Positions 9,786 to 13,201 of a stretch of 23,815 nucleotides of DNA are shown piece by piece. The notes under the pieces were generated by a model, which was not told where the DNA came from, searched no databases, and saw nothing but the letters and a program-made list of their open reading frames with translations. Made by a program: the position numbers and the translations under genes. The stretch lies in the IMG/VR virus record IMGVR_UViG_2850796239_000008; one strand, 5' to 3'. The stretch comes from a virus. Taxonomy: Duplodnaviria > Heunggongvirae > Uroviricota > Caudoviricetes. The stretch's first letter is position 1. The number at the start of each line of letters is the position of its first letter.

Positions 9786-10541
9786 ATGAGCATGAAACTA
9801 ATGGCAAAAGCAATGGAAATTAAAGTGGGTAATCCATTGCGTAAGCTGGTTCTGATTAAGCTGGCTGATAATGCCAGCGATCAGGGCGAGTGCTGGCCCA
9901 GCTACCAGTATATCGCTGACCAGTGCGAGATTAGCAAGCGTTCTGTGATTAATCATATTGCGGCGCTTTGTGAGTCCGGGCTGGTAAAAAAAATCACCCG
10001 GAAAGGTGAAAAAGGTAATACAAGTAATATCTATCTCCTTCATCTGGATGGTGCAGAAAATTTACCGGGGAATAGTGCAAATAATTCGCTACATTGTGCA
10101 TCAGATGCATCGGGTAGCGCAGGAGTTGCACCTGTTGCCAGTGCAGGAGTTGCACCCAGAACCAGTCACTCTTTTGAACCAGTCAATGAACCTGATGTTG
10201 GTGGATCTGCTGACGCAGATCCACAGGTCAGTCATCGCGCAAAAAACAAAATCGACTGGCAGAGGGTTCTGGACAGCTATCACGAAATCCTGCCTGAAAT
10301 GCCATCAGTGAAAATTCTGACGGATACCAGGAAAAAAAATCTGCGGACGTTCTGGCAGAAATTCGGTTTTGACCAGCAGCGATGGGAGTCCTATCTGCGA
10401 TACGTTGCTGAGAACTGTCGCTGGATGCTGGAAGATCGTCCCAATGGCAGCGGTGGGTTCTGGAAGCGTAAAAACCTGGATTACCTGATCACCGAACGGT
10501 GCTATGTCGCTGTCAAAGAGGCGCGGGCAAATGACAGATAA
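9786..10541 (+). CDS. Phage replication initiation protein, N-terminal HTH (YdaU/O-like), 251 aa
   Basis: N-terminal winged-helix-like region (LRKLVLIKLADNASDQGECWPSYQYIADQCEISKRSVINHIAAL); GAGG RBS; internal DNA direct repeats in the linker-coding region. Confidence 0.65.
   Translation: MSMKLMAKAMEIKVGNPLRKLVLIKLADNASDQGECWPSYQYIADQCEISKRSVINHIAALCESGLVKKITRKGEKGNTSNIYLLHLDGAENLPGNSANNSLHCASDASGSAGVAPVASAGVAPRTSHSFEPVNEPDVGGSADADPQVSHRAKNKIDWQRVLDSYHEILPEMPSVKILTDTRKKNLRTFWQKFGFDQQRWESYLRYVAENCRWMLEDRPNGSGGFWKRKNLDYLITERCYVAVKEARANDR
10117..10190. repeat. Iteron-like direct repeats inside the initiator gene (candidate replication origin)
   Basis: GCAGGAGTTGCACC occurs twice (10119-10132, 10143-10156; 24-bp period), followed by GAACCAGTCA twice (10164-10173, 10181-10190). 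Confidence 0.5.
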
Positions 10542-11487
10542 CACCTTTCCGGTGCCATACCGGGTCGATGCCGAACAGGCAGTGCTGGGGTGCCTGATGG
10601 TAAACACCGACACTGAGCGTGCGGGGCAGGTGTATTCGATGCTGAAACCGGAGTCGTTTTACGTTGCGGCGCACAGGGTTATTTTCCGTGAAATTCGCGG
10701 ACTTTTCCGCGCCGGAAAGCCTACGGACCTGCTCAGCCTTGCGAACGTGATCGAGGCGAAAAAACTGGATGCTGAGACTGGTGGCTTTGCGTACCTTGCT
10801 GAAATCAGCAGGAGTGCCACGCTATCGGCGATGGTTCACTACGCCGGGATTGTGCGGGAAAAATCCATCCAGCGGTACGCGGTGGAAAAATTACATGCGT
10901 GCATCGGGATCATGAATCAGCCGACAGACACGAGTGCGACAGAACGACTTGGCGCAGTTCAACAGGTCATTGGCACGGTGGCAGAGTATGCCAGAACAGG
11001 AAAAACAGGCGGTCTGCGCCCGGTAAGTGATGTGGTTAACGACTGGATTGATGATCTTGAGCGTCGCTTTTCCAGCCCGGAGAACGCAGCGGGTCTGACG
11101 CTGGGGATTAGCTCTCTGGATCGGCTTATGGCCCCCAAACATGTGCTACGTGGTTCGCTGGTAGTGATTGGTGCAAGGCCGAAAATGGGTAAAAGCGCCT
11201 CGCTGAACAGGATTGTGACGCATTTTGCTCTGAATCATCGTCTGCCCACACTGGTATTCACCCTGGAAATGACAGATCGCAGCCTGGTTGAGCGCATGGT
11301 TGCGCAGGAGGCGAGGGTAAATTCTGAAATTTTTTATGTCGGTGCCAGTGATGACTCGGATATGGCGCGGGCGATGGCGAAAGCCGCAGAACTGGCAGAA
11401 TCAAACCTGATGATTGACAGCACACCAGGGGTAACGCTGGCCCATGTGATCGCTGAATGCCGGAAGGTTAAGCGTCAGCGTGGTGTT
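10531..11487 (+). pseudogene. DnaB-family replicative helicase, 5' fragment (interrupted by IS insertion)
   Basis: N-terminal DnaB-like segment DAEQAVLGCLMV and Walker A GARPKMGKS. The frame runs directly into the TGA that forms the first 3 nt of the IS at 11488. Start taken at ATG 10531 (AAGAGG RBS); an ATG at 10504 is also in frame. Confidence 0.8.
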
Positions 11488-11551
11488 TGAGGTAGCCTGA
11501 GTTTAACGGACACTCCTTCCTGAAATAGAATGGCATCAGAAGGAGCTAATA

Positions 11552-11854
11552 ATGAGCAGAAAAACCCAACGTTACTCTAAAGAGTTCAAAGCCGAAGCTG
11601 TCAGAACGGTTCTTGAAAATCAACTTTCGATCAGTGAAGGCGCTTCCCGATTATCCCTTCCTGAAGGCACTTTAGGACAATGGGTTACCGCCGCCAGAAA
11701 AGGGCTCGGTACTCCTGGTTCCCGCACGGTGGCTGAACTGGAATCTGAAATTCTGCAACTGCGTAAGGCGTTAAATGAAGCTCGCCTTGAGCGAGATATA
11801 TTAAAAAAAGCAACAGCGTATTTTGCACAGGAGTCGCTGAAAAATACGCGTTAA
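11552..11854 (+). CDS. IS3-family transposase OrfA (HTH), 100 aa
   Basis: AAGGAG RBS; product MSRKTQRYSKEFKAEAVRTVLENQ... with a leucine-zipper-like C-terminus. Confidence 0.9.
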   Translation: MSRKTQRYSKEFKAEAVRTVLENQLSISEGASRLSLPEGTLGQWVTAARKGLGTPGSRTVAELESEILQLRKALNEARLERDILKKATAYFAQESLKNTR

Positions 11855-11889
11855 TCGAACAATGGCGACAACAATTTCCCATTGAAGCG

Positions 11890-12708
11890 ATGTGTCAGGT
11901 ATTTGGTGTATCCAGGAGCGGTTATTACAACTGGGTACAGCATGAACCCTCAGACAGAAAACAAAGTGATGAGCGGCTAAAACTGGAGATTAAGGTGGCA
12001 CATATCCGCACTCGCGAAACATATGGAACCCGGCGGCTCCAGACGGAGCTGGCAGAGAATGGCATCATCGTTGGTCGTGACCGACTGGCACGTCTTCGTA
12101 AGGAGCTAAGGCTACGCTGTAAGCAGAAACGCAAGTTCAGAGCGACTACGAACCCGAACCACAATCTGCCAGTTGCGCCAAATCTGCTGAACCAGACGTT
12201 CGCTCCTACAGCACCAAATCAGGTCTGGGTGGCGGACCTGACGTATGTTGCCACACAGGAGGGATGGTTGTACCTCGCTGGCATCAAAGATGTTTATACG
12301 TGCGAAATTGTCGGCTACGCCATGGGAGAGCGCATGACAAAAGAGCTGACAGGTAAAGCCCTGTTTATGGCGCTCAGGAGCCAGCGCCCACCTGCCGGGC
12401 TAATCCACCACTCTGATCGAGGTTCACAGTACTGCGCATACGATTACCGGGTCATACAGGAGCAGTTTGGTCTGAAAACATCAATGTCGCGTAAAGGTAA
12501 CTGTTACGACAACGCTCCGATGGAAAGCTTCTGGGGAACGCTGAAAAATGAGAGCCTGAGCCACTATCGTTTTAATAACCGGGATGAAGCCATCTCAGTA
12601 ATACGGGAATACATTGAGATTTTCTACAATCGTCAGCGTCGTCACTCTCGTCTGGGGAATATCTCCCCGGCAGCCTTCAGGGAAAAATATCATCAGATGG
12701 CTGCTTAA
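11890..12708 (+). CDS. IS3-family transposase OrfB (DDE catalytic domain), 272 aa; likely expressed as OrfAB by -1 frameshift
   Basis: The -1 frame is open from the slippery site at 11803 to this ORF; catalytic-type motifs HSDRGSQY and NAPMESFWGTLK. Confidence 0.9.
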   Translation: MCQVFGVSRSGYYNWVQHEPSDRKQSDERLKLEIKVAHIRTRETYGTRRLQTELAENGIIVGRDRLARLRKELRLRCKQKRKFRATTNPNHNLPVAPNLLNQTFAPTAPNQVWVADLTYVATQEGWLYLAGIKDVYTCEIVGYAMGERMTKELTGKALFMALRSQRPPAGLIHHSDRGSQYCAYDYRVIQEQFGLKTSMSRKGNCYDNAPMESFWGTLKNESLSHYRFNNRDEAISVIREYIEIFYNRQRRHSRLGNISPAAFREKYHQMAA

Positions 12709-12751
12709 AAAAAGAACAAATGGTAGTGTCCGCTATTGCCAGTACACCTCA

Positions 12752-13201
12752 GTTGTCGGCCTTGTGGCGATCGATTACCTGACGCTGATGAAGGCGGAAG
12801 CCGCGGAGCGTCGTGATATTGCTTTCGGGGATATCACAACGGGCTTAAAAAATCTCGCTAAAGAGCTGGACTGCGTGGTTTTACTTCTGACGCAACTTAA
12901 CCGAAAACTCGAGGACAGGGCAGATAAACGCCCCACACCAAGCGACAGTCGCGACACCGGGCAGATTGAACAGGATTGCGATGTGTGGATTGGGTTGTAC
13001 CGGGATGCTGTCTACAACCGTAACGCAGACTCTCAGCTTATGGAGCTGATTCTCCGTCTGAACAGGGAGGGAGCAACAGGAACAGCATACGCCCTGATGG
13101 ATAACGGTTCAGTGACTGATGTCAGCGCAGAGGATGCTGCCAGACGTCTGAGACTTGGTGGTCCGGCACGTAAACCCTACGCACAGACGGAGGATTTCTG
13201 A
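12752..13201 (+). pseudogene. DnaB-family helicase, 3' fragment
   Basis: Frame resumes as VVGLVAIDYLTLM... directly after the IS; joining 11487 to 12755 restores one continuous frame of about 476 aa. Confidence 0.8.

Follow-up and report, generated by a model that had tools for sequence, protein, structure and literature searches.

A DnaB-type helicase gene split by IS600 in a Rac-like prophage remnant of Shigella boydii ATCC 35964

The insertion sequence IS600 was originally described from Shigella sonnei. Annotated IS600 elements are 1264 bp long, have TG...CA ends and a DDE/rve catalytic core, carry orfA and orfB connected by a -1 frameshift, and produce a 3-bp target duplication. DnaB-type replicative helicases are encoded by temperate phages of the P22-like, HK022 and Sf6 types, in which the helicase gene follows an initiator gene and its product contains both DnaB domains. 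In Shigella, IS600 is among the five insertion sequences that have expanded across all species (PMC7373316).

In this study, we closely examined a phage-derived stretch of 23,815 nucleotides (IMG/VR record IMGVR_UViG_2850796239_000008; here called the window), which is part of the Shigella boydii ATCC 35964 chromosome (CP026875.1). It combines both systems: a helicase gene in the initiator-helicase order of the phages named above, with both DnaB domains, and an IS600 copy inserted into it. The element shares all of the listed properties with annotated IS600 and shows no differences from it, so that the insertion site alone is strain specific. The features are compiled in Table 1.

Table 1. Features of the split helicase gene, the inserted element and the neighboring IS1 joint (window positions)
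Feature	Position	Strand	Details
Replication initiator gene	9786..10541	+	HTH_36 domain and weak DnaD_N match (Pfam); intact
DnaB-type helicase gene, 5' part	10531..11487	+	Codons 1-319; DnaB N-terminal domain, Walker A GARPKMGKS (aa 214-222), FTLEM (aa 243-247)
Target-site duplication GTT, left copy	11485..11487		Codon Val319; single GTT at empty site
IS600 (IS3 family)	11488..12751	+	1264 bp, oriented as the helicase gene; 100% full-length match to S. boydii plasmid copies
IS600 left terminal inverted repeat	11488..11514		Pairs with 12725..12751
IS600 orfA	11552..11854	+	100 aa; Pfam HTH_Tnp_1
Putative programmed -1 frameshift signal of IS600	11803..11852	+	Slippery run A AAA AAA (11803-11809) and hairpin (11812-11852)
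IS600 orfB	11890..12708	+	272 aa counted from first ATG; Pfam HTH_21 and rve (DDE integrase core)
IS600 right terminal inverted repeat	12725..12751		Pairs with 11488..11514
Target-site duplication GTT, right copy	12752..12754		Single GTT at empty site
DnaB-type helicase gene, 3' part	12755..13201	+	Codons 320-467 and stop; Walker B AIDYL (aa 324-328), LTQLNR (aa 364), SDSRDTG (aa 382)
IS1	14682..15449	-	768 bp; no target duplication, flanks AATTTTCTT and GTCATTCGG; joint of ~23.6-kb deletion

The IS600 copy and its junctions

The initial annotation had described the element as IS600-like; it is IS600 itself, since all 1264 of its 1264 bp are identical to copies annotated as "IS3-like element IS600 family transposase," and 778 plasmid records match it at an identity of at least 99%. 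Its 27-nt terminal inverted repeats are imperfect (70% complementary) and form the ends TGAGG...CCTCA. The orfB frame is open already from position 11791, and a frameshift at the slippery run yields a stop-free OrfAB fusion of 385 aa, which scored 414 bits against the NCBIfam model transpos_IS3 (NF033516; cutoff, 160). The hairpin 3' of the run has a predicted energy of -13.1 kcal/mol (z = -2.25), and the run is presumably the frameshift site that IS600 actually uses. This copy is intact and, as judged from its sequence, probably still active. Separate IS600 copies at two other loci (L004 and L005) agree with it in ends and length and are flanked by 3-bp duplications, ATG and ATT. Both loci were considered as further occurrences of the same insertion and rejected, one being an Ag43-region pseudogene and the other a prophage gene for a hypothetical protein.

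At the left junction (11487/11488), AAGCGTCAGCGTGGTGTT is followed by TGAGGTAGCC, and at the right junction (12751/12752), GTACACCTCA is followed by GTTGTCGGCC. The helicase frame runs through KRQRGV into an in-frame TGA (11488-11490), with which IS600 begins, and continues behind the element as VVGLVAIDYL. Although a 3-bp match of the flanks has a chance of 1/64 by itself, the GTT is a genuine target duplication, because the natural empty site contains only one. In the enteroinvasive Escherichia coli (EIEC) strain CFSAN029787, this site reads AAGCGTCAGCGTGGTGTTGTCGGCC, and BLAST placed window positions 11487 and 12752 at the overlapping subject positions 12957 and 12955. Thus, the limits and length of the element, both GTT copies and the frame break had all been given correctly in the initial annotation, and the terminal repeats and the duplication were both present upon re-inspection.

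The rebuilt helicase and its relatives

Removal of IS600 and one GTT from the sequence rebuilt a single helicase frame, as had been predicted, with the DnaB N-terminal domain and the Walker A motif named earlier. The predicted length of about 476 aa is obtained solely from an upstream in-frame ATG at 10504, but translation from the RefSeq start (ATG 10531) gives 467 aa. The 467-aa protein and WP_000131761.1 are identical, with a single synonymous difference at the DNA level. Pfam detected PF00772 (DnaB N-terminal; 86 bits, cutoff 23) and PF03796 (DnaB_C, RecA-type; 215 bits, cutoff 27), and phmmer aligned residues 9 to 433 with E. coli DnaB (6bbm; E = 1.4e-72), with which the protein is colinear. 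Across the rebuilt junction, RQRGVVGLVAIDYLTLM matches REHGGIGLIMIDYLQLM of E. coli DnaB without gaps, and both Walker motifs are conserved. The alignment suggested in the initial annotation held against both DnaB and phage helicases. The scores stayed below the NCBIfam cutoffs for TIGR03600 (phage_DnaB; 393.6 versus 498.65) and TIGR00665 (DnaB; 317.6 versus 385.25). By its domains and its RefSeq name, the rebuilt protein belongs to the DnaB family, but it is not an equivalog by the NCBIfam models.

Among phage proteins, the closest relative is the helicase of Pectobacterium phage ZF40 (64.5% identity over ~95% of the length); helicases of P22-like and lambdoid phages share 44% identity with it over ~95%, among them Sf6 gene 44, HK022 P and the Gp12 locus of the P22-like Salmonella phage SE1 (44.4% over 95%; E = 2e-125). 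P22 itself was not singled out among the matches listed, and the homology to P22-type gene 12 rests on SE1 Gp12. At the nucleotide level, the rebuilt gene matched none of 50,697 phage records, the homologues being found at the protein level alone. Compared with other DnaB-type helicases of temperate phages, this one represents a distinct allele that is restricted to a few related prophages of E. coli and Shigella and is interrupted in the window. The initiator gene shares 11 nt with the beginning of the helicase gene, and its product is identical to the counterparts in two related loci (L001 and L006).

The Walker B motif (IDYL) follows IS600 at a distance of 7 codons. Since IS600 brings in an in-frame TGA at this point, Walker A and Walker B are placed on different fragments, and this separation suggests that helicase function would be lost.

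The host prophage, its relatives and the distribution of the insertion

The host element is a Rac-like lambdoid prophage integrated at ttcA. Window positions 1 to 7393 are 97.3% identical to the region ttcA-intR-xisR-...-recE of CFSAN029787, and Pfam identified Phage_integrase, Exonuc_VIII and YdaT_toxin domains in the window. Int/xis, the repressor/cro-like genes, ydaT and the initiator are all intact, which makes it plausible that an inducible early region is still present. The late region is severely reduced: at the IS1 joint, ~23.6 kb comprising the late regulatory, lysis, terminase, head, sheath, tube and tape-measure genes and most of the tail is gone, and the tail module bears two frameshifts in addition. 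Because of this deletion, the prophage is unable to make particles whether or not its helicase works. In E. coli, a search with the IS1 joint returned two-piece, non-equivalent matches only.

Two relatives were compared, a near-full-length prophage of E. coli FDAARGOS_943 (NZ_CP065615.1, ~825.6-872.4 kb) and the prophage that occupies the Rac site of CFSAN029787. Their early and tail regions are 99 to 99.6% identical to the window and their initiator proteins are the same as that of the window; the CFSAN029787 helicase matches the rebuilt protein exactly, and the FDAARGOS_943 helicase departs from it at two residues. Unlike the prophage in the window, both have an intact helicase gene and have kept the 23.6-kb late region, and their immunity regions are unlike that of the window. 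The FDAARGOS_943 prophage also uses another integrase and attachment site, adjoining yebY. Each has been hit by IS elements of its own, CFSAN029787 by IS2 in a DUF977 gene and FDAARGOS_943 by IS600 in the lysozyme gene and by IS1 in a tail-fiber gene.

The empty site that the initial annotation had proposed to look for in related strains was found by BLAST in 9 of 5426 complete E. coli genomes, most of them from isolates of human origin, where the uninterrupted helicase gene with a single GTT aligned in one piece at 99.3 to 99.9% identity. The occupied junction was seen in none of the 5426, nor in the species-representative genomes and metagenome contigs searched. At the protein level, the truncated 319-aa product was present on 2 to 3 contigs, and the exact intact 467-aa protein was present on 140. 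A Logan assembly (SRR3793777; L003) also contains the helicase gene running directly into the left end of IS600. Several apparent further cases were discarded. Some O26 and other E. coli genomes align 18 to 24 nt past the start of the element, but the likeness of these flanks is due to chance; the shorter "partial" cluster members P0004, P0013 and P0014 are contig-end truncations that read straight across the junction and are not independent disruptions. The insertion is recent and limited to a narrow lineage.

Origin and significance of the insertion

We conclude, with a probability of roughly 95%, that a single IS600 transposed into the helicase gene of a Rac-like, ttcA-integrated remnant and that this is one of several lesions, not the cause of its crypticity. 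From what is established for the IS3 family, IS600 would have moved by copy-out and paste-in via a circular intermediate, with a 3-bp staggered cut at the target. Entry at the codon boundary following Val319 would end translation immediately at the TGA carried by the element, giving a 319-aa fragment with the N-terminal domain and Walker A, and would leave the segment with Walker B and the conserved motifs LTQLNR and SDSRDTG lacking its own start signal. The late genes may have been lost at the IS1 joint before or after this event. None of the results contradicted the transposition account.

The initial annotation had presented the insertion as a step that would help make the prophage cryptic. 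Its structural claims all held, but given the IS1-bounded deletion this effect of the hit in the helicase gene is redundant at best; with the late genes gone, it counts as one of several independent lesions. The corresponding scenario, in which IS600 struck a complete prophage first and the deletion and frameshifts followed once selection had ceased, would fit the otherwise intact replication module (the genes neighboring the unchanged initiator differ by 0 to 4 aa from those of the relatives) and the retention of most late genes in relatives with an intact helicase (L006). We nevertheless regard it as unlikely. Compared with the uninterrupted allele, the two helicase halves have a single synonymous change and no nonsynonymous one; the tail module bears its frameshifts and deletion. 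Among the genomes found none has just one of the two lesions. With the element 100% identical to other copies and the helicase halves almost unchanged, the insertion looks very recent.

The intact early genes could also suggest that the insertion was positively selected, if origin firing from a derepressible but nonproductive remnant is harmful and loss of the phage helicase benefits the host. This seems very improbable: the insertion is confined to one strain lineage, no parallel hits in the helicase gene were found among the cluster members, and the 229 to 348 IS insertions per Shigella reference chromosome are consistent with drift (PMC7373316). We give a slimmer chance still to the knockout not as neutral decay but as a selected step of prophage domestication that silences origin firing in the chromosome by an inducible, no longer productive remnant or, in a weaker variant, yields a 319-aa fragment that would act as a dominant negative on the replication of superinfecting relatives.

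It is highly improbable that the split helicase still functions, either as two assembling polypeptides or because the N-terminal fragment acts by itself, for instance by disturbing host DnaB or DnaG. That fragment keeps the whole N-terminal domain, and an open reading frame from TTG 12614 inside IS600 continues in frame into the 3' part of the gene. The break, however, divides the RecA-type core, with Walker A on one side and Walker B on the other, and the possible restart codons are not preceded by a Shine-Dalgarno sequence. A scan of the right end of IS600 revealed no outward-facing promoter, the sole promoter-like site (11503-11531) being the element's own. Misplacement of a repeated IS600 copy by the assembler, conceivable for a multicopy element, can be virtually dismissed, as misassembly does not produce an exact 3-bp target duplication, the separate Logan assembly has the left junction, and the window agrees with the finished chromosome across 20,960 bp.

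In terms of annotation, the two helicase open reading frame fragments should become one IS-disrupted pseudogene; beyond this, the value of the case is small, as a well-documented instance of pseudogenization with natural empty sites. The junction could serve to mark the lineage of S. boydii ATCC 35964 and the strains closest to it. The insertion represents routine genome decay in Shigella, where IS-driven pseudogenization is already known and has been described at the population scale (PMC7373316), and it adds to a picture of one prophage family struck independently by IS1, IS2 and IS600 across Shigella and EIEC strains.

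The interrupted helicase gene

The IS600-split prophage helicase is real, and the interpretation in the initial annotation is correct except for two points, the length of the rebuilt protein and the role given to its loss; the phenomenon and both of its components, IS600 and the helicase, were already known. Direct reading, a script, a repeat finder and the ORF list reproduced all coordinates, including those of a 1264-bp IS3-family element with GTT at both junctions, of which the empty site has one. Upon re-inspection, this duplication was accompanied by terminal inverted repeats, the longest inverted pair in the repeat-finder output. 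As had been described, the helicase 5' frame (from 10504/10531) runs through ...KRQRGV into a TGA at 11488-11490, and a second frame, VVGLVAIDYL..., carries the helicase on to 13201.

Joining 10531-11487 to 12755-13201 yielded 1404 nt without a stop, confirming a single rebuilt frame, but one of 467 codons and not of about 476. The proposed N-terminal DnaB domain (Pfam DnaB, aa 9-110, 86 bits) and Walker A motif were found, together with DnaB_C (aa 188-431, 215 bits). E. coli DnaB (6bbm) was the top match among solved structures (E = 1.4e-72, residues 9-433), and the alignment crosses the rebuilt junction without a gap (RQRGVVGLVAIDYLTLM versus REHGGIGLIMIDYLQLM). The suggested comparison with P22 gene 12 also held, as Gp12 of the P22-like phage SE1, gene 44 of Sf6, 'P' of HK022 and proteins of Stx phages show ~44% identity over 95% of the length; the closest phage homologue is a protein of Pectobacterium phage ZF40 (64.5% identity). 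No nucleotide-level relative of the rebuilt gene was found among phage records, and the protein scores under the curated cutoffs of NCBIfam phage_DnaB and DnaB. By domains and alignment, the predicted protein is a DnaB-family member, not an equivalog.

Val319 is the last codon before IS600, which parts Walker A from Walker B and brings an in-frame stop at once. Judged from its sequence, the split gene would be null. An ORF that begins with TTG within IS600 (12614-13201, 195 aa) passes in frame across the right inverted repeat and into the 3' part of the helicase; neither a promoter-like site nor a Shine-Dalgarno sequence that would support its expression was found.

Features of the interrupted gene, the inserted elements and the prophage early region (window positions unless stated)
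Feature	Position	Details
Left junction	11487/11488	AAGCGTCAGCGTGGTGTT/TGAGGTAGCCTGAG; direct reading of 10300-13500, script
Right junction	12751/12752	GTACACCTCA/GTTGTCGGCC; direct reading of 10300-13500, script
IS600	11488-12751	
GTT target duplication	11485-11487, 12752-12754	read from sequence
Terminal inverted repeats	11488-11514, 12725-12751	27 nt, 70% complementary; repeat finder
Promoter-like site, IS600 left end	11503-11531	predicted
orfA	11552-11854	HTH_Tnp_1 (Pfam)
Hairpin after slippery run	11812-11852	-13.1 kcal/mol, z = -2.25; folding
orfB	11890-12708	HTH_21, rve (Pfam)
AGCG-bearing flanks	window 11470-11487; L004 2487-2526; L005 2479-2518	TCAGCGTGGTGTT; CCAGCGCGATATG; GTAGCGAGGCTATT
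Walker A GARPKMGKS	aa 214-222	upstream of IS600
FTLEM	aa 243	upstream of IS600
Walker B AIDYL	aa 324-328	downstream of IS600
LTQLNR	aa 364	downstream of IS600
SDSRDTG	aa 382	downstream of IS600
HTH_3 repressor	8461-8937	
cro-like gene	~9034-9276	
Initiator upstream of helicase	9786-10541	HTH_36; protein identical to relatives
IS1	14682-15449	768 bp

Integrity and transposition of the IS600 copy

The element labelled IS600-like is IS600 proper: S. boydii plasmid copies match the insert at 100% identity over its whole length, 778 plasmid records match at ≥99%, and identical copies are annotated elsewhere as 'IS3-like element IS600 family transposase'. The frame of orfB, -1 with respect to that of orfA, is open from 11791, and a slip at A AAA AAA (11803-11809) yields an unbroken 385-aa fusion, scoring 414 bits against NCBIfam transpos_IS3 (cutoff, 160 bits). 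With intact orfA and orfB, this fusion, the hairpin and the promoter-like site, the copy looks fully functional. Two E. coli copies of IS600 that arose independently (loci L004 and L005) confirmed its boundaries and duplication size, having the same ends and length and 3-bp duplications of ATG and ATT. At all three sites, AGCG precedes the left IS end by ~9-13 nt, which may hint at a target preference or be chance (n = 3).

IS3-family elements use a two-step circle pathway, as outlined in PMC3299598. Following this established biology, IS600 would have arrived by copy-out and paste-in transposition, with the target cut staggered by 3 bp.

Empty and occupied sites

The rebuilt gene has a one-piece match (99.3-99.9% identity) in nine of the 5426 complete E. 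coli genomes, annotated in each as 'replicative DNA helicase'. Compared with the rebuilt sequence, the uninterrupted 467-codon gene of EIEC CFSAN029787 (WP_000131761.1) has a single synonymous base change and encodes an identical protein; its target reads ...GGTGTTGTCGGCC, with GTT once. The exact 467-aa helicase is carried by 140 contigs, variants are present in S. flexneri and S. boydii, and partial cluster members are also uninterrupted across the junction.

In contrast to these empty sites, the left helicase-IS600 junction was covered by none of the 5426 genomes, and its 38-nt string was not found in species-representative genomes or metagenome contigs. The 319-aa truncated product is recorded in three contigs only, GCA_002950355.1 CP026875.1, identical to the window over 20,960 bp, and two short Logan contigs, one of them from run SRR3793777. 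Since the occupied site is so rare, neither helicase half shows decay and the IS has the same sequence as other copies, the sequences point to a recent insertion limited to one lineage.

Decay of the surrounding prophage

Window 1-7393 aligns with the Rac-site prophage of CFSAN029787 over its ttcA-intR-xisR-...-recE region, and Pfam identified integrase, Exonuc_VIII, Rha, HTH_3 repressor and YdaT. The genes downstream of the helicase are intact. Inside the initiator gene, the 17-nt sequence AGYGCAGGAGTTGCACC is directly repeated (10116-10132 and 10140-10156, 24 nt apart); the two copies could be origin iterons or merely encode the repeated peptide SAGVAP. The immunity region (7393-9264), with the HTH_3 repressor gene on the minus strand and a cro-like gene, is unlike that of CFSAN029787 and E. 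coli FDAARGOS_943 (locus L006), relatives otherwise 99% identical; a 197-bp block alone aligns (91%), which is typical lambdoid mosaicism. A RecE-family (Exonuc_VIII) ORF spans 3700-5640 (646 aa); in both relatives, the counterpart is annotated as a pseudogene truncated at the C terminus, so that degradation may extend to the recombination module.

Baseplate and tail-fibre genes follow the IS1 in the window. In FDAARGOS_943, 25 kb separates the counterparts of the helicase and baseplate genes, in a prophage of ~45 kb, and the alignment shows L006 14830-38396 (~23.6 kb) replaced by IS1. The lost interval comprises DUF1364/1367/1133 late-region genes, four tRNAs, holin, lysozyme, Rz, terminase, portal, head, neck, sheath, tube and tape measure genes and the 5' end of a baseplate gene. 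The IS1 has no target duplication; the joint suggests either an adjacent deletion mediated by IS1 or recombination of two IS1 copies. Compared with L006, two G runs are one base shorter, which divides the spike gene (17416, G6 to G5; 17193-17435 and 17405-17869) and breaks the next gene (18012, G5 to G4); these deletions could reflect real decay or sequencing errors in homopolymers. Given the late-region loss and the tail-gene lesions, the prophage is a remnant irrespective of the helicase. The helicase knockout, which had been proposed to help make it cryptic, is redundant with this far larger deletion and cannot be credited with that effect.

The FDAARGOS_943 prophage has another integrase and attachment site, beside yebY, and ipaH3 adjoins its right end. 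Its lysozyme gene holds its own IS600 (L006 20901-22164) and its tail-fibre gene an IS1; in CFSAN029787, a DUF977 gene is divided by IS2. This prophage family has been struck by IS elements repeatedly and independently. As the reference chromosomes of Shigella contain 229-348 IS insertions, and IS600 is one of the five IS that have expanded in all species of the genus (PMC7373316), neutral decay is the default reading of the helicase insertion.
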